Shown piece by piece: positions 1-56,225 of a stretch of DNA of 64,000 nucleotides (positions within the stretch are counted from its first letter, which is position 1; every line of letters starts with the position of its first letter). The notes under the pieces are model-generated. The model was not told the origin of the DNA. It saw only the letters and a list, made by a program, of their open reading frames with translations, and made no database searches. Where the stretch lies: contig JBNRSN020000009.1 of assembly GCA_051313645.2 (NCBI GenBank), forward strand, positions 152,582,001 to 152,646,000, in the 5' to 3' direction. Position numbers and translations under genes: made by a program. This DNA comes from Centroscyllium fabricii (taxonomy: Eukaryota).

Positions 1-312
1 ACCGACTTTTGAATGAGACGTTAAGCCAAAGCCCCGTCTGACCTCTCGGATGGATGTAAAAGATCCCATGGCGCTGTGAAAATAAGAGCAGGGGAGTTAT
101 CCCCGGTGCCCTGGCCAATATCTATCACTCAACCAACATTACTAAAATAGTTTATCACTTTGCTGTCTGTGGGAGCTTGCTGAGTGCAAATTGGCTGCCT
201 CAAATTCGTTTTTCTACATTACAACAGTGACTACACTTCAAAAGTACTTCATTGACTGTGAAGCGCTGTGAGATGGCTTGAGGTCGTGAAAGATGCTATA
301 TAAATGCAAGAG
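1..312 (+). mobile_element. Deu-domain SINE (SacSINE1-like), truncated by window start
   Basis: Deu-domain-like core gtaaaagatcccatggc...gagcaggggagtt...ctggccaatat and L2-like tail gctatataaatgcaag; same family as 5278 and 16078. Confidence 0.8.
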
Positions 313-1704
313 TATCTTTCTATGGTTCCCAAAGCGCTCCATAACTGCTTTTCCTCGCGTCGAGATTGATTGCTGTGAATGGTCAACAAGTCCACGCGAC
401 TCCTGGGATGGCAGAAGGCGTACTAGATGGATTTTGGTCTTTTTTTGTTTAGCAGTTCTTATGATCCTATATATCCTTATTGAGCGTTGCATGGTCTTGA
501 TTTATTGTAAGCTTGACCAGGGGCTTGCAACTCATTCCTACTGTTAAAATGCTGTGTGGAAAATCAAGGATATAAAATATAGTAGGCCACAGACTCGGAG
601 TGAGGGCACAGATGCCATGGTCTGATCTTGGTGAGGAAACAGAATGGACATGCTCTTTTCTCTTCCAGGCATAATGAGGTACGGTTCATTTGCCCTTCTA
701 GCACAATTCTTTTCTGTTTGCTTGCAGAGTGTGGGGTGGGCAGAGAATGGGGTGCCAGTCAGCTGCCCGCTATTTCTTTCAGGGTAATGTACAGTATGGG
801 GTAAAAAAGTAACGATGTATGGTATTGCACCTGTGGTGGTTAAGGTTGTCAATTCTGGCTGGACCTATTCTGGGAGGTTTTATCGTACGACCGCCAACTG
901 CCCTGCTGCCACGCTCCAGCCATTGGCTACCCTAACTCTTTGTTACCTGACTGGATGATTCTTGATTGTTGGTCAAACAGCCTTTTTCCCGTCTCCAATA
1001 TTTTTATAACTAATATGCAAAAGTCTTTGAAGATAATGGGGAAAGAAACCACAATTGTTATTAATGCCCCTATGATTTTTCTCCTGGGCTGCTTGCAGTC
1101 GTGTGTGTGTGTGAGATTAATCTTTACTTCCTGGAGATTCTTGGACTAACCCAGAGGGATTGCAGCCCTATTGGTGGTGGAATGCAAGAGCTATCTATTT
1201 CAGCAGTGTGCGCACTTCAGCATTGGGCGCTCGATGTAGTGTTTCATATGTATCCGCGTAATGTGAACCCATGTGCACTGGTATTTGGAGCGAAAAACAT
1301 GTTTACGGATGGTACATGTGCTGAGCTAGATTTCAGAAGAGCTGATGCTAACTCCACTCATGGTTTAGTAGATGTATACATTGCCCCAGTGCGTTACTGG
1401 TTACTGAATCATGCAGACCAGGCATATTGCAGATTCAATCCCCGCATCTGTGCTCAGTTTACTGGTCTTGGCTGGGCCGGTAATCGGGTCGCTGCACTTT
1501 GACCTCGGTGACCCTGCACAGCGCTGATTGGTGAGCAGGACTTGGCCGGGTTAAGATACGGGCAGCAGAGTTTTGGATGGGCTGAGGGTGGGGTATGGCA
1601 GTCCAGACAAGAGAGCATTGGAATAGTTATGTTTGAAACTTCCATAGGCATGGACGAGGGTTTCGGCAGTGGATGAGCTGAGATTTCGGTCACACACTTG
1701 TGAC

Positions 1705-1867
1705 CAATGTTCCCCTGTAAGCTGCGCTTTGTTCTGTGTGGTCTGTTTCTTTTAATGCACGGTCCCTTTAAATTTCTGCGCATGCGCAGTATTTGCAATG
1801 TAAAAGCCGGTGAGCGGCCTACGCAGGACCTTCCGGATTGCGGTGTGGCCGTGCGTGCGGAACATTG
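1705..1867. mobile_element. hAT-like MITE
   Basis: TIR caatgttcc...ggaacattg with a perfect 8-bp TSD cttgtgac. Related copies at ~49503-49651 and 53658-53794. Confidence 0.8.
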
Positions 1868-2335
1868 CTTGTGACCCATTCCTGCATGATTCATTTATCA
1901 CCGATGGGTAATTTATTTGTTACAGTTTTTTTTTGTTCAGTAATGAGCTTCAAGGTGTACATATTTTGGTAAGTGTACCATGTCAGTGATGTTTTAGCAA
2001 TCACTGGCGTAGTTAAAAATCATAATTTCCCATTTTCTTTTCCGAGTTGGTTGATCCCATCTTGGGCAACAGTGTGGGCACTACAATTGGCATCAATTCT
2101 CCAGGGCTAGGGAGGAGAAATATCCGTGGGGGTACCTGCTCTCATCATTAACCAGCTCTGTTGAAAGTGTGCTTGTGTGCATGGGCTGAGGCCAAGATCA
2201 GGTTGTCTGTGATACCCCTATGGTTCAATAGTCTGACTCTGTCAGTGCTCTGACTTGAATAATGACTTTCCTTTGTCCGCATTAGGTCTGACATGTGGAA
2301 ACCTAGCGCTCTGTTTCAGTGTCCAATTTAAACTA

Positions 2336-2658
2336 CAGGTTGAGCACCGGTAATCCGGCACCCTCGGGGCCAGGCCGGTGGAAAATTCCGAACCACTGAA
2401 GGTTTGGGGTAAAATACTCCCCGGAGCGCGCGGGTAGAACATTCCCCGGGGCCCGGAGCGCGCAGCTGGAACACTCCCCGGGAGGGAGCCCGGGGATAGA
2501 TCACTAAAAAGCAGAAACCCAAACGCCCGACAACTTTGGCGCTTGCCCACCCTTCGCGGGAAATGGTGGCACCGCCGAGCAGCTGCTCCGCAAACTGGAG
2601 ACGGCCGGTTTCGATTCGTGCCGGACCATTGGGTGCCGGATTACCGGTGCTCAACCTG
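2336..2658. mobile_element. Tc1/mariner (pogo/Tigger-like) MITE
   Basis: TIR caggttgagcaccggtaatccggcaccc, TA TSD; sister copy at 17735-18058. Confidence 0.85.
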
Positions 2659-3462
2659 TACTGAAACATTACCATCCACTAGTACTGTTTCTATGTGTCC
2701 AATATGGATTGAAGACTTTCTTCCCATAGAGATTTATCTCACTTACTTAAGTTGTAAGTTGATCGAGCAAAGATCCAGGGAGTATCACCACCATTCTCTT
2801 GCCCACAGCACTAGCATACACCACAGCCAGTATAGTGGTGTTCTAGTCTTGGTCTATATTCCCCTCCCCCCCCCCCTCCCTACCCACCCTGCAGTTTCTA
2901 GATATTACAGGAATTTCTGGCATGTAAGACCTGTTTTTGATGAGATAACCTTTGAATCATCCTCTGTATCTGTTTGTGCAAATGTAAATTCCACTAAACC
3001 AGAGTTTACTGATGTGAAGAAGGGATAGAATCATCTCTCTGCAATCTACGCTGGAAGTCTGCAACACCACCAGAGGCAGCCAGTAAGCTTGAATCTTAGC
3101 CCGTAATACTCTGGCTCATAATACAGTGGCTTGCAAGATGGCAAATTCATCTGAATATTGGTCACCAGATTTATATTCTGCGTTTTGTTATTGGATATTA
3201 CTTTAACTTTGTTCACTTGCGATTCATTCCTTGGTATTTGCTATTATATAGACAGTACAGATCGCTAGAACCTTTTGAAAGGTGGCCTTCCCACATCTTC
3301 GAAAGGCCTTCCCTTCAACCATGCTTTCCTTTCCCACTTGATGCCGACAATTTTCTTCCGCCTTGTAGCGTGCTCGGAGATATTTGTCTTTGTGAGCTGG
3401 CACTGCAGAAATGCAGCTTGTTGAGGGACCAGAATCTCGGGCCTACTTGTGGCTTCTTCACA

Positions 3463-4190
3463 AATTCAAGATTCAAGATAATTTTCTTGCCATGTGTAAC
3501 TCGTACAATGGAATGCTTACTCCCCTCCCCATTCACTCCCACAATTATAAATGTAGAAAAGCAAAAAGTAAAAAGTGAAAAAAAAAACAAGTATAAATAT
3601 AGAAAAAATAACAATCAAATAAACAAGTAAGTAACGAGTGCAGTTAGCAGTTCAGTAGGCGCACTGCCTGTGGGTAGAAACTGTTTCTGAACCTGCTGGT
3701 CCTGGTTCGGATGCTGCAGTACCGACGGCCGGACTGCAGGAGGGAGAACAGATCGTGCCCAGGGTGATTGGGGTCCTTGATGATGGAGCGGGCCTTGTTC
3801 CGACACCTGGTCTGGAAGATCTCCTCGATGGACGGAAGTGCACACCCGATAATTTTTTCTGCCGTCTTCACGACCCTCTGAATGGCTTTCCTGTCCTGAG
3901 CAGTGGTGTTGCCATACCACGCAGTGACGCCACCCGACAAGACGCTCTCTATGGTGCCGCGGTAAAAGTTCACAAGCCATTGTGTGCTTATGCCGCATTT
4001 CCTCAGGCACCGTAGAGGGTAGAGGCGCTGGTGTGCCTTCTTCAGCATTGCCTCGGTGTTATAGTTCCAAGTCAGATCGTCAGAGATCTGCAGACCTAGG
4101 AATCAGAAGCAGCTGACTATTTCTACCGGTGTCCCACCTATGATAATTGGTCGGTGGTTCTCTTGATGGCATCTGAAGTCCAATAGACAG
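3463..4190 (-). mobile_element. Rex1/Babar LINE, 5'-truncated
   Basis: ORF 3644-4048 KKAHQRLY..LR...FYRGTIESVL..GVTAWYG...HPGHDLFSLLQSGRRY...RFRNSFYPQAVRLLN is a typical Rex1 RT C-terminus; (ATCTTGA)n tail at ~3463-3480. Confidence 0.85.
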
Positions 4191-5277
4191 AAGTAAATAT
4201 TTTTAAATGGTTTTATGCCTCCTGGAGCCTCTGAGCATCGGGTGAGGTGTCGAGGTTCGACCATGTTTGACATAGGGTTTCGAATGACTGGAAGATATTG
4301 CTTGCTATGCTTGTGGTATGCAGTGTCGCAGTTGCTGCCTTGCATTTTCACACCCAAGTTATTCTGAGTTCATGCGGCAGCATGGTCCCTTGTTCCGGAA
4401 GCTGCATCGTTTTGCAATGCAGTAATGCAGCTTGGTCAGAAGCACTAACAAGTTGTACAGCCACTCCAGGTGATTATTTACTCTGGTCACACTCCAGATA
4501 TGTAAAGAAGCAAATTTTGGAAAGGATGTGCTTCTATTGCAGTCAGCGGAACTGAATAACAGGAGCTGTGTGTAACAGGCTGCTGATCCGATACTGCCTG
4601 TTTTGATCCATCGCCTGAGACAAATTTCCAGGCCTAAGTCTGCGTGTCACTCTTTTAAAAAAGAAAAAAATAACCTGAAGTGATGAAGGATTAATTTACT
4701 TGGTTAGTACGTACATTGGCTACTGTGTCACTGAGCCATATACTGACCAGTCAGGTGTCTGGTTTAGTCGCAGGCCTGAGCTGTGTTGGCTAACCTCGGC
4801 TATGATAGCAGTTGACGCGTTACAGTTGATCTCATTCCCTTGGCTTAGAAAGGGGAAAATCAGCCAGAGTTCATGCTCGTGATCCACTACGCAGTGACAC
4901 CTGCTAATAAAGCGTTCAAGCTATCAGAGAGCTGCAGGTGCACTTGTAAACATAACCCAGTGTGTGTTCGCACCCTCGGGGAGGGGGGGGTGGAAAAGAG
5001 AGAAAGTTGGATTTTTTAAAAATCTAGCTAATCATTCTTTGAGATTCAAACTGTCCTTTCTTTTTTTTGGTATGTCTTTGTTCTTCTGGCCTTCTAGAAA
5101 GTCATTTTTAACATTTACAAGCTTTTCGCAAAGTTTGAGGAAACGACGTTTTCACAGACAGTAGAAATTTATTTGGGGGTAAATTGACCTATGGGCATAC
5201 TTTAAAGGAGGTTCTTGGTGACAAATGACAGTGCTTGCTACGGTATTTAGATAATGGTGTTCCAGATTTTTTAATGT

Positions 5278-5742
5278 AAAGCAAGACTTGTATTTATATC
5301 GTGACTTTCATGACCTCCGGACATCCCAAAGTGCTTTATAGCTAATTAAGCAGTTTTGAAGTGTCGTCACTGTTGTAATGTAGAAAACGCGGCAGCCAAT
5401 CTGCAGAGCAATGTCCCATATGTAGAAATGTGATAATGACCAGATCATCTGTTTTAGTGATAATGGTTGAGGGATAAATATTGGCCCCAGGACACCGGGG
5501 AGAACTCCCCTGCTCGTCTTTGAACTAGTGCCATGGGATCTTTTACGTCTACCTGAGAGAGCAGACGGGGGCCTCGGTTTAATGCCTCATCTGAAAAGAT
5601 GGCACCTCTGACAGTGCAGCACTCCCTCAGTACTGCACTGAAGTGTCAGCCTAGATTATGGGCTGGAGTCTCTGGAGTGGGACTTGAACCCACAATCTTC
5701 TGACTCAGGCAAGAGTGCTACCCACTAAGCCACGGCTAACAC
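5278..5742 (-). mobile_element. Deu-domain SINE, near full length
   Basis: tRNA-like head (gtggcttagtggg...gggttcaagtccc), Deu core and L2-like tail. Confidence 0.85.
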
Positions 5743-6788
5743 CTGTATTAATGTTGAAGATTTAGGTACTAGTCATTGAATGGATTTTGTAATGTACTGT
5801 AGAGGCTTGTTATAGATGGAGTCAACACTGAGGCACTGTAAAACAAAAAGCAACTTGCATTTATCTAATGCCTTTAATGTAAAACAGGGTCCCAAAGTGA
5901 TTCACTTTGGAGAAGGAAATAGAAAGGCTTAGGGAAGCAATGTTGGTGTGGGGGCCTAGGTAGCTGAAGACACTGCCGCCAATCGTGGGGGCGAAAACGG
6001 GTGGGTGGGTGGGGCGGAGCGAGTGCATAAGAGGCTGAGGCCAAGGAATGGAGAGTTCGGGGCGGTTGTACAGCTAGAGGCGGTTACAGAGATAAGCTGT
6101 GGAGGGATTTGAACCCCAGTATGAGAATTTTAAATTTAAGGCAATGGGGAACTGGGTGTCAGTATCGGTCAGTGAGGACAGTCGTGATAGGCAAGCAGGA
6201 CTTTGTGTGGGATTGGATACAGGTAGCAGAGCTTTGGATGAACTGAAGTTTACAGAATGCGGCATGAATCTGGTGGGTCAGAACATCGAACTGGATCTAG
6301 TGTTGTGCTTTATTATTGTCTTGTTAAATCGTTTATGCAGCAGTGGAGGGCTGAGGTGATTACAGGTGCTTGTGTGCACCAATGTCCTGAGTTTCTTGAG
6401 CAGCATGTCAGGGTGAGCAGCAAGGTTTGTAACTTAATGCTGGACAGCAATGAATATGTGATTGATTCTAGGATCCTCCGAACTGCAGAAATCCCTCTGT
6501 ACTCTGCAGTTCAGTACAATTGGCTGGTTCTACAGGGGTCTGTGAGTTGGCATGTTGCAAGGGTATGTTAAGTGGATAGGTTATTAAGTTTTGCAAATGT
6601 ATAGTTTGGCAAGGTATTGACTGCAAGAAGTCATGCATTCATGTAGCACCTTACCTCAGAAAGCGCTTTACATGCAGTGAATTGCTTTGAAGTACAGTGA
6701 CGTGTTATATAGGTAAATGCATGACTTAAAAAGATCAATGCAAGAAGTCACAAAACACCAGGTTATAGTCCAACAGTTTTATTTTAAA

Positions 6789-6826
6789 TCACAAGCTTTC
6801 GGAGCGTCTGCCCCTTCGTCAGGTGA
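6789..6826 (-). ncRNA. Minimal type I hammerhead ribozyme motif in Penelope pLTR
   Basis: Reverse complement UCAC-CUGACGA-aGGGGC agac GCUCC-GAAA-GC-UU-GUGA: stem I, core, stem II and palindromic stem III. Confidence 0.7.
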
Positions 6827-7661
6827 AAGAGAGGTTGATTTAAAGAACGCACATATGGAAGGGAGAGAGAAATCTGATCCCCCCACATCTCACCTTAGCA
6901 GAGACAGACAGAGCACACAAAGGCGTATTAACATATTTTAACACATCAGTCTGAGATCAATGAGGCACAGTCACAAGGGGTCAAATGCTGCAAAACACAC
7001 AATGATTTAAAAAAAAAGGAATTTCCTTACAAGACAAAGATGTCTCTGGTCTGGATTACTCTACGTCAGGCAGGGTCACATGTAGCGTGACATGAAGCCG
7101 ATATCACGGTTGAGGCCGTCCTCATGGGTGCGGAATTTGGCTATCGGCCTCTGCTCGACGATTTTGCGTTGTCGTGTGTCTCGAAGGCCGCCTTGGAGAA
7201 TGCTTACCCGAAGATCGGAGGCTGAATGTCCTTCACTGCTGAAATGTTCCCCGACTGGGAGGGAACACTCCTGCCTGGCAATTGTTGTGCGGTGTCCGTT
7301 CCTGAGGACCCATGAGGACGGCCTCAACCATGATATCGCCTTCATGTCACGCTACATGTGACCCTGCCTGACGTAGAGTCATCCAGACTAGAGACATCTT
7401 TGTCTTGTAAGGAAATTCCTGTTTTTAAAAATCATTGTGTGTTTTGCAGCATTTGACCCCTTGTGACTATGCCTCATTGATCTCAGACTGATGTGTTAAA
7501 ATATGTTAATACGCCTTTGTGTGCTCTGTCTATCTCTGCTAAGGTGAGATGTGGGGGATCAGATTTCTCTCTCCCTTCCCTATGTGCGTTCTTTAAGTCA
7601 GTCTCTCTTTCACCTGATGAAGGGGCAGCCGCTCCAAAAGCTTGTGATTTAAAATAAAACT

Positions 7662-7908
7662 TGATGTGACAAAAGAGACCTACACGTCAATAACTCTTAA
7701 GCAAAGCTTTAATCAACTATTTACAGAGTTAGAGTTTCACATGCTTACAGGGGAAGCATCATCCCAGACTGGATAGCAGCAGAACTTATACCACTAGACA
7801 GGAAGTGATGTATATACAGGAAGTGACATGTAAAAAGGAAATGATGTCACAGGAAATACATATGCAGAGTTCATTAGACTTTCTGCGGGAAGTTTCAATA
7901 TCACTACA
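7662..7908 (-). mobile_element. Solo LTR inserted in the Penelope pLTR
   Basis: TG...CA ends (tgtagtga...tcacatca on -), 5-bp TSD aaact (7657-7661 and 7909-7913), ATTAAA on -; it interrupts an otherwise contiguous pLTR. Confidence 0.8.
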
Positions 7909-8025
7909 AAACTGTTGGACTATAACCTGGTGTTGTGTGACTTCTTACAATTGTCCACCCCAGTCCAACACCAGCACCTCCACATCTTAAAAAGATCAGC
8001 CATAGAAATCACAAAACGCGTTGCA

Positions 8026-9316
8026 TTTTTTTTTCCTCTTTGGGACTGGCCTGATGTCAATTTCCATCTTCAGTGTCAAGAAGGGCAGGACTTTCTGCTC
8101 GGTTGCGCTGGTTTTTTCAGCACAATTTGCGTGAAATCGACTGAACCAACACAAAAGATTGAGTAATTTCAAGTGCAAATTAAGTTCGGCGCAACTTGAG
8201 TTTCCATGATCTCTTGCACTAGTTTAAAGAACGTCGCGTTAAAAGCTGGTCCCGCCGACAAAACTGGCCACCCCTCCAGATTGAATTAATCACCGCGGCT
8301 AATTGCGCTCATTTGCGGGCCTTCGAGGAGGCTGTAAAAAATGAAACTCTTTATTTTTTTAAGCGCAAGGGCACTAATTTTAAATGTACTAAGAAACTGA
8401 CTGCTGTGCACCAATACACAGAAACACAGAAGATAGGAGCAGGAGTCGGCCCTTCCAGCCTGCTCCGCCATTTTGACGAGATCATGGCTGATCATCCAAA
8501 CCCAGCACCCCCCTCCTACCCTCTCCCCATATCCCCCGACACCCCCAACTCTAAGAACTATATCTCACACACATACTCATGGGCAATTTTTTTTTAGTAT
8601 TTCCAATTCACTTAACCTGAATGTAACTAGTAAATGGTTCTGTAATGCTTTTAAGTCATTTTCTAAAGTCGGGTTATTCACAGGCGATGGCCTAGACACC
8701 CTGATTGCAAAATACTTATTTTTTATGATAAACCCATTTTCAGCTCTATTACTCCGACTGCCAATTAATTTGCACTTGAAATTACTCAATATTTTATGCT
8801 GGTTCAGCCGATTTCAGGCAAATTGTGCTTGAAAAATACCAGCGCAACCGAGCAGAAACCCCTGGCCTCCTTGACACTGAAGATGGAAATTGACACGGTG
8901 GCATAGTGGTTAGCACTGTTGCCTCACAGCTCTGGAGACCCGGGTTCAAATCCAGCCTCGGGTGACTATCTGTGTGGAGTTTGCACATTCTCCCCGTGTC
9001 TGCGTGGGTTTCCTCCGGGTGCTCCGGTTTCCTCCCACAGTCCAAAGATGTGCGGGTTAGGTTGATTGGCCAGGATAAATTGACCCTTAGTGTTAGGGGG
9101 TTTGAATGTGTGGGGTTACGGGGATAGGGTGGGATATGTGTCGGTTCAGGCTCGAGAGGGATATGGGGACAAGGCAGGGACAGGGTGCTGGGTTTGGATG
9201 ATCAGCCATGATCTCATTGAATGGCGGAGCAGGCTCGAAGGGCCGAATGGCCGACTCCTGCTCCTATCTTCTGTGTTTCTGTGACACCAGGCCAGTCCCA
9301 AAGAGGAAAAAAAAAA
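8026..9316. mobile_element. Foldback/MITE with ~160-bp inverted repeats, interrupted by an HE1 SINE and a CR1 tail
   Basis: 8026-8183 is an imperfect reverse complement of 8765-8895 plus 9282-9316. Confidence 0.7.
8893..9282 (+). mobile_element. HE1-like V-SINE
   Basis: tRNA head, V-domain (tgtgtggagtttgcacattctccccgtgtctgcgtgggtttcctccggg), CR1/HER1-like tail; flanked by tgacac repeats. Confidence 0.9.
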
Positions 9317-9780
9317 GTTACCACTCTTGCATACACCAAGGAATATTTTTAATGCAAATTAAAAAAAAAAAAAAAATTACATTCTGAAACGCTGCCCGAT
9401 TGCGCCGGTTCATGGCAGATGTTACCTTTGGTGATATGCAAATGAGTTTGAGCAGCAACTTGAGGGGGAAAAGAACACATCTCCAAACTAGCGCCATTTG
9501 CGCTGGGATCGCCGATTGTGCTCAAAGCTGAACCTCTTGGCTCCCTGCAGTCTGTAGCCAGAGACGGACGTGGATTAGCTGGAGGCTGGTCACTTTACTG
9601 AAAGCTTTTGTTTATTGGGGCAATTTCGGGTTTGACTGTACAGTTGTGTAGACATATTGTGACATGCCAGAATAGTTTCAAGTGTCAGCGTGCCTGGCAG
9701 CAGTGGGTGATTCATCTGCACTTTGTGTTGTCTTCCTCACAGCCTGCTTTGGAGCTGGATGGAGCGGGCTTGGAAGAGAA

Positions 9781-9904
9781 ATGACTGACCAGGAGAACAA
9801 CAATAACATATCCAGGAACCCCTTTGCAGCTCTCTTCAGTTCTGTGGCCGATGCCAAGCAATTTGCCTCCGTCCAGAAACAGCAGTCCCTGACCGGGCCA
9901 CAAG
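9781..9904 (+). CDS. UBE4A: UBE4A coding exon 1 (start codon)
   Basis: [35 protein letters not shown] matches the vertebrate UBE4A N-terminus. Acceptor cacag ends at 9742 (short 5'UTR part); donor CAAG|gtaagc, phase 1. Confidence 0.96.
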
Positions 9905-10156: not shown

Positions 10157-10241
10157 TTTGAGGAAGGGGCAGCGCTCCAAAAGCTTGTGATTTCAAATAA
10201 AACTGTTCGACTATAACCTGGTGTTGTGTGACTTCTTACAA
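10157..10241 (+). mobile_element. Penelope pLTR 3' fragment starting within the hammerhead core
   Basis: tgaggaaggggcagcgctccaaaagcttgtgatttcaaataaaactgttcgactataacctgg; flanked by tgttttg repeats. Confidence 0.75.
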
Positions 10242-13347: not shown

Positions 13348-13401
13348 TTCAGCTTTTGTTAGGAGTTTGGTCTTGTTCCTTGTCTGTTGTACTTGTTGAT
13401 G

Positions 13402-13545
13402 ATTGTAAGAAGTCACACAACACCAGGTTATAGTCCAACAGTTTTATTTGAAATCACAAGCTTTCGGAGCGCTGCTCCTTCCTTAGGTGAAGTGACGAGA
13501 TTCATTTAAACATAGCATATATATATATATATATAGAGAGAGAGA
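13402..13545 (-). mobile_element. Penelope pLTR fragment with hammerhead-like motif
   Basis: Same pLTR as 6744-6860; 11-bp TSD acttgttgatg; core reads CUAAGGA (mutated). Confidence 0.75.
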
Positions 13546-39349: not shown

Positions 39350-39970
39350 TAAAAACACACACTGCTGGACACACACTGCTGGAAATATTCAGCCAGTCAG
39401 GCAGCATCTGTGGAGGGAGAAAGAGTTAATGTTTCAGCTCGATGACCTTTCATCAGAACTGGAAAAGGCTGGAGATGTGACCGGTTTTGAGTAAGGGCAG
39501 GGGAAGGAGGGATGGGCGGAAAGAGCAAAAGGGGAGGTCTGCGATGGTGGAAGGCAGGAGAGATTGAATGACCAAAGGGATGATGGTATGGTGCGAGGCG
39601 AAAGGGGGAGGTGATGGGACAGGTACAGAAACAAAAGAGGTGTAAATGGGAATGGCAGAAGCATCAACAGCTGTTGTCCGAAAAAATGGGGCCGAGGTTC
39701 TGATCTGAAATTATTGAACTCCGTGTTGAGTCCGGAAGGCTGTAAAGTGCCTGATCGAAAGCTGAGATGCTGTTCCTCGAGCTTACGCTGAGCTTCACTG
39801 GAACAATGTTGGAGGCAGGGGACAGAGAGGTCAGAGTGGGAGTGGCATGAAGAATTAAAGTAGCAGGCGACCGGAAGCTCAGGGTTTCCACAGATGCTGT
39901 CTGACCTGAGTATTTCAGCATTTTCTACTTTTTATTTCAGATTTCCAGCATCCGCAATATTTTGCTTTTA
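39350..39970 (-). mobile_element. Penelope-like element family 2, 3' end with short inverted piece
   Basis: On -: degenerate GIY-YIG end PVACYFNS..HSHSDL...RKLEEQHL.FR.GTLQPSGLNTEFNNF; pLTR; inverted cacagatgctg...ccagcatccgca at 39888-39970. Confidence 0.8.
39424..39460 (-). ncRNA. Minimal hammerhead ribozyme motif (Penelope family 2)
   Basis: Reverse complement AGUU-CUGAUGA-aAGGUC auc GAGCU-GAAA-CA-UU-AACU. Confidence 0.65.
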
Positions 39971-44824: not shown

Positions 44825-45458
44825 ATAGAAACATAGAAGATAGGAGCAGGAGTAGGCCATTCGGCCCCTCGAGCCTGCTCTGCCATTCAATGAGATCATG
44901 GCTGATCATCCAAATTCAGTACCCTGTCCCTGCCTTCCCCCTTGATCCCTTTAGCCTTAAGAAATATATCTAACTTCTTCTTGAATATATTTAATGAATT
45001 GGCCTCTACTGCCTTCTGTGGTAGAGAATTCCACAGGTTCACCACTCTGGGTGAAGAAATTCCTCCTCCTCTCTGTCCTAAATGGCTTACTCCTTATCTT
45101 TAAATGTAAGAAGTCACACAACACCAGGTTATAGTCCAACAGTTTTATTTGAAATCACAAGCTTTCGGCGCGTTGCTCCTTCATCACCAGAAAGCTTGTG
45201 ATTTCAAATAAAACTGTTGGACTATAACCTGGTGTTGTGTGATTTCTTACATTTGTCCACCCCAGTCCAACACCGGCACCTCCACATCATGGCCCTTATC
45301 TTTAGACTGACCCCTGGTTCTGGACTCCCCTGCCATCGGGAACATCCTTCCTGCATCTCGTCTGCCTCGTCCTGTTAGAATTTTATAAGTTTCAATGAGA
45401 TCCCCTCTCATTCTTCTAAACTCCAGTGAGTACAAGCCCAATCAACCCAATCTCTCCT
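44825..45458 (-). mobile_element. CR1 3' fragment
   Basis: [21 protein letters not shown] and tail; interrupted by the 45103 element. Confidence 0.88.
45103..45293. mobile_element. Mini Penelope hairpin element
   Basis: Two inverted pLTR ends plus an extension; 11-bp TSD ccttatcttta. Confidence 0.85.
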
Positions 45459-51353: not shown

Positions 51354-51561
51354 AATGTAAGAAGTCACACAACACCAGGCTGTAGTCCAACAGTTTTATT
51401 TGAAATCACAAGCTTTCGGAGTGCTGCTCCTTCCTCAGGTGAAGGAGCGTTGCTCCGAAAGCTTGTGATTTCAAATAAAGCTGTTGGACTATAACCTGGT
51501 GTTGTGTGACTGCTTACATTTGTCCACCCCAGTTCAACACCGGCACCTCCACATCATGGCT
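51354..51561. mobile_element. Mini Penelope hairpin element with intact hammerhead motif (51406-51442, -)
   Basis: 12-bp TSD acttgaagcaca; reverse complement UCAC-CUGAGGA-aGGAG cagca CUCC-GAAA-GC-UU-GUGA. Confidence 0.85.
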
Positions 51562-51648
51562 ACTTGAAGCACAGCAGCGAGAGAAGCCCCTGTTCTGCAG
51601 CATTCAGTAAAAGACACTCTCATGACATTGCCAACGACACGACACGCA

Positions 51649-52609
51649 TGTTGACGTGCTCCGTCCCTGGCCCGTTGACGTGCTCCGTCCCTGGCCCGTT
51701 GACGTGCTCCGTCCCTGGCCCGTTGACCTGCTCCGTCCCTGGCCCGTTGACCTGCTCCGTCCCTGGCCCGTTGACCTGCTCCGTCCCTGGCCCGTTGACC
51801 TGCTCCGTCCCTGGCCCGTTGACCTGCTCCGTCCCTGGCCCGTTGACCTGCTCCGTCCCTGGCCCGTTGACCTGCTCCGTCCCTGGCCCGTTGACCTGCT
51901 CCGTCCCTGGCCCGTTGACCTGCTCCGTCCCTGGCCCGTTGACCTGCTCCGTCCCTGGCCCGTTGACCTGCTCCGTCCCTGGCCCGTTGACCTGCTCCGT
52001 CCCTGGCCCGTTGACCTGCTCCGTCCCTGGCCCGTTGACCTGCTCCGTCCCTGGCCCGTTGACCTGCTCCGTCCCTGGCCCGTTGACCTGCTCCGTCCCT
52101 GGCCCGTTGACCTGCTCCGTCCCTGGCCCGTTGACCTGCTCCGTCCCTGGCCCGTTGACCTGCTCCGTCCCTGGCCCGTTGACCTGCTCCGTCCCTGGCC
52201 CGTTGACCTGCTCCGTCCCTGGCCCGTTGACCTGCTCCGTCCCTGGCCCGTTGACCTGCTCCGTCCCTGGCCCGTTGACCTGCTCCGTCCCTGGCCCGTT
52301 GACCTGCTCCGTCCCTGGCCCGTTGACCTGCTCCGTCCCTGGCCCGTTGACCTGCTCCGTCCCTGGCCCGTTGACCTGCTCCGTCCCTGGCCCGTTGACC
52401 TGCTCCGTCCCTGGCCCGTTGACCTGCTCCGTCCCTGGCCCGTTGACCTGCTCGGTCCCTGGCCCGTTGACCTGCTCGGTCCCTGGCCCGTTGACCTGCT
52501 CGGTCCCTGGCCCGTTGACCTGCTCGGTCCCTGGCCCGTTGACCTGCTCGGTCCCTGGCCCGTTGACCTGCTCGGTCCCTGGCCCGTTGACATGCTCCGT
52601 CCCTGGCCC
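51649..52609. repeat. 24-bp GC-rich minisatellite, ~40 copies
   Basis: Unit tgctccgtccctggcccgttgacc. Confidence 0.97.
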
Positions 52610-54184
52610 AGTGAGTGCACCACCTTCCCCAAACCTCTGGGACAGGCCTAGTAAAGGCAGTGGGAGAGGAAGCAATGCACTGAAGTTGAGAACAGCGAGC
52701 TCCTAGACATTTGTCAATTTACATTTCTCCTAAATATTCCCTGTAGAGTTCACTTATGTTTTTGCATTTCTTGCTGACCATTATGGGGAAATTCAACCTT
52801 TGTTTCTCCTTATACCCGTGGATTTCTTTTTCTGAAGGGTGGGGTGGCAGGGTGATAGTTTGCATTTCTATGTTCTCTAGTTATGCGATGATTAGTCTAA
52901 AACTGTCGGTTTTCCCCTCTCTCATCCAGTCCCTCTGGCTCCGCGTACACCACAGTCAGAAGACATTCCTGTGAATATGTATCTACAGATATAGGTCGCG
53001 CTACTGTAGGGCAATTGATTATGTACAAAAACAGACAACACCTCCCCCCCCCCCCCCCCCCCCCCCCCCCCAAGATGGCTCTTCACTGCAGGTAATCTGC
53101 TGGGATCAGTGTTGCTCCTCTCATTGAGGATCCAGAGACGGCGGGCATTATAGATCAGGTCTCCCGCTGGAGCCCCATGCACAGACACTGGGCCTACCGG
53201 GCCACACAATCATCATTTCCAAACGATTGGAAAATGTCCCGCTGCACTCGGGAAGCTGACTGACAGACTTCAATGTAAATAATTACAACTGTACAAATAA
53301 CGTTGGCAGATAGTGACTGCTTTAAGTGAGGATTGTGGCCAAAGGAATGGGCATTAACGCCCTGTTTAGGTCTGCGTTCCTGGAACACTTGGGAGCAACA
53401 ACAGCAGACACGTAAATAATATTCCAAGCCGTAAAGTTTGGAACATCGAGAGTTACAAATGTTTCTTCTATCTGTAATATTGGTCAGTGTTGTCACTAGG
53501 TTTTCAGTAAAGTGTAAGGGTTTGTCTTTTGAAATCTTTGTGCTGTGTCCACTTGAACTGTGGAAAAACAGCCAACACTGCAGTTGTAAATTCTGTGCTT
53601 CCAAACTTGGGATGCGTCTGGAAGGAACATTGGTTAGCACCCTTGTACTGCATAGCTCAATGTTCCCTTTAACCTCGCACGCAGGCCGCTTGCCGGCTTT
53701 ATAATAGGAAAAACCACGCATGTGCAGGAATTTGAATGGGCCACGCAGCCCGTTAAAGGGGCAGTGCATCCAAAAAAAATTCAAGGGAACATTGATGCTA
53801 ACCTCAATTGATCAGTGGGTAGTTGAGCCACACAGTTGAGTATGGTCCCAGGTCTGATCCCCAGTCTGTGCTTAATTAGCAGATCTTGAACAGGGTGATA
53901 GGAGGAACTACAGTTGGCCACAGCAATTAGGGAGGGGCGAACTGGGCATGGTTCCCATTTCCAATTTCCATCCAGTGACCCCTAGAAAGTGCAGGCGGAG
54001 TGAGGATGGGATTTGGCTCACCAGTGACCTGCTCTGGTAAAATAACCTGCCCACACTCGCTGTGAAGGGCTACACGTGAAGAATGGCCAGATGGGTGAGG
54101 AATTGCAACCCACCCCATGTGACCATTCCCCTGCTCGGGGTCAATATCTTCAGGGTGGAGGAAAGTTGGAGCAAGTTGCAAAAC

Positions 54185-55646: not shown

Positions 55647-56225
55647 TGATGTGGAGGTGCCGGTGTTGGACTGGGGTGGACAAATGCAAGAAGTCACACA
55701 ACACCAGGTTATAGTCCAACAGTTTTATTTGAAATCACAAGCTTTCAGAGCGTTGCTCCTTCCTCAGGTGTAAAAGAGAAGTTAATTAGAAGACAGCATA
55801 TATAGAAGGGAGAGAGCAATCTAATCTCTCCAACATCACACTTCAGCAGAGAGACATACAGAGCAGACAAAGGTGTTTTAACATATTAATCAGGCACCAG
55901 TCTGAGATCAATGAGGTATAGTCACAAAGGGTCAAATGTTGTAGTCTTGTGTCTGTGTGAAAACACACAGAATGATTTAAAAAAAGAAGGATTTTCCTTA
56001 CTGGAAATCGCCGCAGCAAACAAGACAAAGCCGACTTGAGTCTGGATGACTCTACGTCAGGCAGGGTCACATGTAGCGTGACATGAAGCCAATATCACGG
56101 TTGAGGCCATCCTCATGGGTGTGGAATTTGGCTATCAGCCTCTGCTCGACGATTTTGCGTTGTCGTGTGTCTCGAAGGCCGCCTTGGAGAATGCTTACCC
56201 GACGATCGGAGGCTGAAGATCGGAG
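55647..56225 (-). mobile_element. Penelope-like element 3' end (family 1)
   Basis: GIY-YIG end VSILQGGLRDTRQRKIVEQRLIAKFHTHEDGLNRD, pLTR with hammerhead motif (~55735-55771) and extension; TSD gaagagata. Confidence 0.88.

Follow-up and report, generated by a model that had tools for sequence, protein, structure and literature searches.

Does the hammerhead-like motif on the minus strand at positions 6789-6826 of this 64,000-nucleotide stretch of the Centroscyllium fabricii genome (hereafter the window) encode a ribozyme, and does it cut the RNA of the element that carries it? A preliminary description of the same DNA had proposed a minimal type I hammerhead ribozyme (min-HHR) with a palindromic stem III in the pLTR of a Penelope-like element (PLE), a proposal that is supported by the anatomy of the motif, by a reverse transcriptase match and by copies with a pLTR-ORF-pLTR structure. 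The reading that we consider likely from sequence comparison is that the pLTR of a very abundant PLE contains a minimal type I hammerhead, that this motif has been conserved in the copying lineages, and that it would cleave the RNA of the element slowly and only when two motifs pair via AGCU. Earlier publications already cover the class of motif, its location within the pLTR, the dimer model and CUU as a triplet.

Anatomy of the Motif and of Its Element

On the minus strand, stem I is formed by UCAC (6826-6823) and GUGA (6792-6789), C3 at 6822 starts the CUGACGA box, which is followed by one extra A, and stem II (GGGGC/GCUCC) is closed by the 4-nt loop AGAC. Downstream of stem II comes GAAA-GC-UU, with G12 at 6800, and the predicted cut falls after CUU, between 6793 and 6792. 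The coordinates and anatomy first proposed proved exact when the sequence was read again, with the CUGANGA core, the GAAA box and stems I and II in type I order. The traits of PLE min-HHRs are present as well: positions 15.2-16.2 form the palindrome AGCU, the triplet obeys the NUH rule and, in an even sample of 150 evenly spaced 10-kb genome stretches (1.5 Mb), the extra A after A9 is invariant in 34 of 34 arms and the G10.1-C11.1 pair is G-C in 29 of them. The search with hammerhead models that had been suggested gave a divided answer, since a Rfam scan of the window at E up to 10 returned no hammerhead family and seven weak unrelated matches, whereas a full min-HHR descriptor matched 27 times in the 1.5 Mb and 0, 0 and 0 times in three shuffles. 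The loose core pattern alone occurs 10 times in the window against 4.6 expected, a number reached in 3 of 100 shuffles, and this bare pattern is weak evidence for the motifs of the window. Eight of the 27 descriptor matches belong to a second hammerhead family of the same design, with an AACGUU palindrome, a GUU triplet and other stems. A core of this second PLE-type family also lies at 39432-39456 (-) of the window, in a copy that fails the descriptor; its intact copies elsewhere have GUU.

The insertion that carries the motif spans 6738-7985 and is flanked by two 13-bp direct repeats (6725-6737 and 7986-7998), likely a target-site duplication, whose 13-mer is found in the window at 6725 and 7986 only. 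Its left arm (6738-7301, -) comprises the 3′ end of the PLE ORF, encoding the C-terminus of the putative endonuclease, and then the pLTR, as judged by comparison with the 3′ end of the full-length copy at locus L241 (94.9% identity over 569 nt), and its translation matches the end of the ORF. The right arm (7308-7985, +) aligns to the same copy as an inverted, 5′-truncated pLTR plus a tail that stops just short of the position of the element's ATG, and matches the left arm in inverted orientation at 95.2% over 355 nt. This arm is interrupted just downstream of its motif by a 246-bp repeat with TG...CA ends (7662-7907), which has 78% matches in L181 (twice), L032 and L091 and is likely a solo LTR.

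Full-length copies were sought by retrieving the 10 loci with the longest frames out of 150 scored. L248 carries intact motifs at 2294 and 5372, 3,078 nt apart on the coding strand and flanking a 789-aa open frame, while L241 carries a 919-aa frame flanked by two coding-strand motifs, each with a change in stem II. Both frames match the Pfam reverse transcriptase domain RVT_1 (E 6e-10 and 8e-10; 7.5e-10 for the 919-aa frame), and the predicted cut lies 91 nt upstream of the element's ATG. A single ORF with a reverse transcriptase, pLTRs, an inverted 5′-truncated partner and a one-sided tail are features of EN+ PLEs that are present here. A GIY-YIG-like motif (VVYLI...WYIG) can be read by eye in the translations, whereas Pfam gave none on the longer frames and no domain on a 416-aa partial frame. 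Also read by eye, the linker CHSNLCKTC (CX4CxxC) between RT and EN is the trait by which the element is likened to the EN+ Neptune/Nematis PLEs, which are marked by a CX2-5CxxC linker at this position in the account of Craig et al. (2021, PMC8557442). Among neighbouring arm pairs of the even sample, 17 of 20 are inverted (- then +) and 2 of 20 lie on the same strand, an inverted layout already described for PLEs (PMC4209133, PMC8557442).

Abundance and Constraint on the Core

The exact motif occurs 99,468 times in the 7.2-Gb genome against 0 for a reversed control, an abundance that allows each base to be followed separately. From the 52 arms found in the even sample, 8 were dropped (4 hypermutated and 4 chimeric or misaligned) and 44 were kept for column counts. 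Non-majority cells amount to 1.0% in the nine non-CpG core columns, as opposed to 45.5% at N7 and 31.6% in loop 2, which bears out the early remark that the core N and the stem II loop vary; the 26 columns upstream reach 26.1% and the 47 downstream 4.5%. A second allele shared by at least three loci occurs in 1 of 11 columns in the core versus 20 of 26 upstream (p 0.0002), 4 of 5 in N7 plus loop 2 (p 0.013) and 4 of 47 downstream (p 1.0), all p values being rough because the arms share ancestry. The expectation that the core would be conserved above the rest of the pLTR is therefore borne out with respect to the upstream columns and to N7 and loop 2, but fails for the downstream 47 nt. In short, the conservation pattern follows hammerhead rules and the downstream segment is equally constrained, so that promoter, tail or protein-binding roles could partly explain the conservation.

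The decay of CpG dinucleotides offers an internal control, since after insertion the two transitions of a CpG are expected at the same rate. At the CpG formed by C7 and G8, the tolerated U7 is found genome-wide in 17,252 copies versus 2,359 for the core-breaking G8A, indicating that active lineages carry U7 but not G8A. The products of the C11.1-G12 CpG are near-symmetric genome-wide (C11.1U 7,210 versus G12A 6,374). Within stem II, pair 10.3-11.3 shows a one-sided switch in the even sample (G-U 17 versus A-U 17), and no two-sided compensatory change in the stems was seen within the family among the arms of that sample. Separately, the first 100 pattern matches include six copies whose core contains one additional U (CUUGACGA). 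Stem II is shared by five of these six, suggesting that a subfamily in which the core is altered or stem I is shifted has been amplified.

The CUU Triplet and Predicted Folds

The triplet had been described initially as non-canonical and less favourable, and the two halves of this statement fared differently. CUU fits NUH, and Fig. S3 of Cervera and De la Pena (2014, PMC4209133) shows G-C-U-U after GAAA in its Chrysemys and Philodina rows, which makes the triplet canonical and already published. In that figure, U17 is present in 24 of 56 motifs and CUU in 3 of 56 (Philodina, Oikopleura and the turtle Chrysemys), tallies that were counted by hand from PDF text in which the GAAA column is printed apart. 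On the other hand, CUU is indeed among the weakest NUH triplets and ranks last together with UUU in the data given in PMC8879150. U17 is nonetheless fixed in the shark family, with CUU in 99,468 of 100,043 counted copies, and the 575 exceptions (0.6%) are at the level expected from private mutation.

A consequence of U17 is that the palindrome is lengthened to six bases, AAGCUU. Nearest-neighbour energies, which leave out the tertiary contacts of the hammerhead core, are predicted to be -19.5 kcal/mol for a one-core dimer, -21.7 for a 6-bp AAGCUU duplex in which the cut site is hidden and -24.2 for a strand-swapped fold, the best of the three. With the cut buried in that duplex and the dimer scoring worse, slow cleavage at CUU is plausible.

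In the mechanism that we favour, two motifs of a pLTR-ORF-pLTR transcript would share a 4-bp stem III through the AGCU palindrome, and the paired motifs would then cut after CUU, releasing or trimming the unit. This step is modelled on Cervera and De la Pena (PMC4209133) and on the review PMC6765202; in the former, related PLE motifs are reported to cleave weakly as dimers and not as monomers, which makes the dimer dependence invoked from the start likely here. Were the cut slow, the bulk of the copies would derive from uncut RNA. Reports on other PLEs count against this reading: for PAc, a Poseidon element of Anolis, catalytic mutants are reported to leave in vitro insertion unaffected and RNA-seq reads ending at the cut to be absent from the data described (Frangieh et al. 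2024, PMC11167929), and Naiad PLEs are said to spread without the motif (PMC8557442).

Copy Starts at the Predicted Cut

If the RNA were cut in the germ line, some copies should begin at the cut site. An exact start at the predicted cut (G1.1) was found for 4 of the 52 arms of the even sample, at 3 of its 29 loci. One of these loci, L088 (8832-8969), contributes two of the arms, which lie head-to-head with a 23-nt AT-rich spacer between them. Genome-wide, 1,047 copies start at the cut versus 669 at +1 and 517 at -3, these two being the only control positions; a start is scored when neither of the two bases before it matches, and the counts come from patterns that do not cover the subfamily of L042 and L088. 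The control counts are too high. Inspection by eye of the first 100 starts at each control position showed 19 at +1 that resemble deletions of a dinucleotide and 31 at -3 with an initial CA, as expected of fold-backs, and 2 of 12 control loci viewed had no truncation; this check covered the control counts alone. The excess at the cut thus becomes about 1.6- to 3-fold, involves 1-2% of the family, and is confounded by fold-back at the palindrome. Such an excess is a possible footprint of cleavage in vivo. More specifically, one to two thousand copies may have been reverse-transcribed in the germ line from the 3′ cleavage product, starting at G1.1 and some of them with both arms head-to-head, a tentative proposal towards which we lean slightly less than against.

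Most anchored arms, 30 of 36, extend past the cut site, which agrees with the report that the Anolis element is copied mainly from uncut RNA (PMC11167929). Moreover, 3′ ends at the cut were found in 0 of 25 arms of the even sample and 1 of 115 in other loci, a near-absence indicating that 5′ cleavage products are not a common template. Among 140 arms, the sole such 3′ end (L187:6930-6983) lies at the cut or one base past it, in an inverted arm that is fused to the RT region. Positions 1-8900 of the window were also compared, at 88% likeness, with two raw RNA runs and two contig sets. Read depth at 6807 was 90 and 148, and among 10 of the 12 piles of read starts or ends none lay at the cut, which carries no information for fragmented libraries of another species; reads mostly 90-95% alike point to an origin from relatives or from other copies. 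A search by title and abstract, in which subscription journals are thinly covered, found no paper on shark PLE hammerheads or on copy starts at the cut.

A different kind of RNA record was met at L094:8670-8848 and L145:2771-2949, where a near-identical head-to-head pLTR pair sits inside a larger repeat. Compared with an ordinary copy, 30 of its 34 differences are of two kinds, 22 being A>G and 8 T>C when read on one strand, so that it looks like an ADAR-edited hairpin that was copied back into DNA and then multiplied, with a 5′-neighbour bias that is weak on these numbers.

The strongest rival of slow cleavage in dimers holds that the motif is kept for a non-catalytic role, such as RNA pairing at the palindrome, binding of a protein of the element or an overlapping promoter or tail signal, and that it hardly ever cleaves, U17 serving the 6-nt palindrome. 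The downstream flank as conserved as the core, the better predicted score of the AAGCUU duplex relative to the active dimer, the fact that the faster triplets CUC and CUA were never amplified among the 575 non-U copies, and the dispensability of cleavage in vitro reported for the Anolis element (PMC11167929) would all suit it. Yet conservation obeys hammerhead rules base by base, with N7 free and G8 fixed, copy starts are in excess at the cut, and the Anolis motif is reported to cleave, an activity abolished by C3 and G8 mutants (PMC11167929). We regard this alternative as unlikely, and slow, dimer-dependent cleavage remains our preferred reading.

Copies in the Window and the UBE4A Gene

The motif-bearing insertion lies close to a gene. 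The first coding exon of UBE4A was placed at 9743-9900 (+), its right end being approximate, by tblastn with three cartilaginous-fish UBE4A proteins, and the best named UBE4A matches come from cartilaginous fishes. A splice-acceptor-like sequence ends at 9742, with the ATG (9781) 38 nt further on. UBE4A being on the plus strand, the mutated-core copy at 7610-7647 (+, G12A) lies on its sense strand and upstream of the first coding exon, as had been stated. Some 2.2-2.4 kb before the window start, L181 contains a unique GC-rich stretch with a strong splice donor (CAG/GTAAG), which is a candidate for the non-coding exon 1 of UBE4A and would place the insertion, and most likely this copy, in intron 1. 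No non-coding UBE4A exon stood out within positions 1-8900 of the window in the RNA reads and contigs, mostly 90-95% alike. The 50 kb further upstream of the candidate exon is largely LTR-retrotransposon sequence, and the signal of a CpG-island scan over 60 kb upstream was swamped by LTR elements.

The four homologues named alongside the main motif are all present, namely the 7610-7647 copy and those with G1.1 at 13457, 51409 and 55738 (all -), but the 13457 copy does not merely differ at N7: it reads CUAAGGA, and this G5A change breaks the core. It belongs to a pLTR stub of a subfamily with a 3-nt loop (13398-13522, -). At 51354-51520 there is a head-to-head stub pair in whose minus arm (51406-51442) the core is intact by the descriptor and stem II has a single mismatch, and 55683-56217 (-) is a pLTR copy of an older subfamily that keeps the core with C11.1U. 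Four more stubs were found beyond this list, with G1.1 at 10187 (+), 45158 (-), 45198 (+) and 51465 (+); the first lies in a short pLTR stub that lost the 5′ part of the motif and carries G12A (10159-10240, +), as seen by comparison within the window, and the next two form a head-to-head pair in which neither arm has a complete motif (45103-45253). The full descriptor is passed by 3 of the 5 listed copies and by 3 of the 9 in the window overall. All these pLTR copies are dispersed and form no tandem array. Adjoining the pair at 51354-51520, a long and very homogeneous tandem array of a 24-nt unit, open in several frames, extends over 51506-52700.

The position of the mutated copy could suggest selection by the host, in which sense-strand motifs harm the pre-mRNA and the UBE4A-sense copy was inactivated or tuned. 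The full motif is indeed kept in 0 of 4 sense versus 3 of 5 antisense copies of the window, but nine copies are too few for this difference to be read as selection, and 3 of the 4 sense copies are truncated stubs. Nor does G12A carry a special meaning, for it is common CpG decay, occurring 6,374 times and about as often as the opposite change. Moreover, the sense copy sits in a predicted 355-bp inverted-arm hairpin, and in the predicted fold of the read-through RNA 36 of its 38 nt pair with the antisense arm, so that it would be sequestered even if intact. Host selection on this copy was rejected on the symmetry of the CpG decay and is, in our opinion, very improbable. The copies of the window are dead stubs in UBE4A introns, mere passengers, and the sense copy would be inactive twice over, by G12A and by predicted pairing with its antisense twin, with probably no ribozyme effect on UBE4A.

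Least probable of all is a fortuitous resemblance to a hammerhead, spread by a young repeat, an idea which the lack of a Rfam hammerhead match and a loose core pattern barely above chance in the window might suggest, and which is largely refuted by CpG counts, descriptor matches (none in shuffles) and column conservation, as well as by the second family of the same design and by the pLTR position, the extra base after A9, G10.1-C11.1 and the palindromic 15.2-16.2, which match the consensus published in PMC4209133.

Comparison with Known Systems

The closest relatives of the slow, dimer-dependent hammerhead proposed here are the min-HHRs of metazoan PLEs as described by Cervera and De la Pena (PMC4209133), which are alike in the type I topology, the lack of loop 3, the extra base after A9, the G10.1-C11.1 pair, the palindromic 15.2-16.2, the 4-bp stem I, the two motifs about 3 kb apart and the close opposite-strand pairs. 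The Petromyzon row even shares the UCAC/GUGA stem I, while cartilaginous fish are absent from the 56 min-HHR rows of that publication. Unlike those families, the one described here is young and homogeneous, and its 99,468 exact copies far exceed the approximately 4,000 of the coelacanth and 9,000 of Xenopus given there. PAc of Anolis is alike in having a pLTR hammerhead near the ORF start with the tail downstream, and in copies made mostly from uncut RNA, but its ORF is reported to start inside the motif, with the cut 26 nt after the start codon, and not downstream of the cut as in the shark element (PMC11167929). Non-LTR retrozymes, as presented by Li, Clavereau and Pollet (2026, bioRxiv 10.64898/2026.07.22.740005), also carry type I hammerheads derived from pLTRs and are present in the one chondrichthyan sampled. 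They are, however, arranged as head-to-tail tandem arrays, and a retrozyme identity was rejected for the present copies, whose neighbouring arms are mostly inverted in the even sample and which are scattered in the window.

The value of this family lies in its scale. With about 100,000 near-identical copies, base-by-base tests show that hammerhead rules are respected in the copying lineages, and the same copies open a route to asking whether PLE ribozymes cut in vivo. Should the copy starts prove to be traces of germ-line cutting, the activity of minimal hammerheads in vivo could be read directly from histograms of copy starts in huge PLE families.
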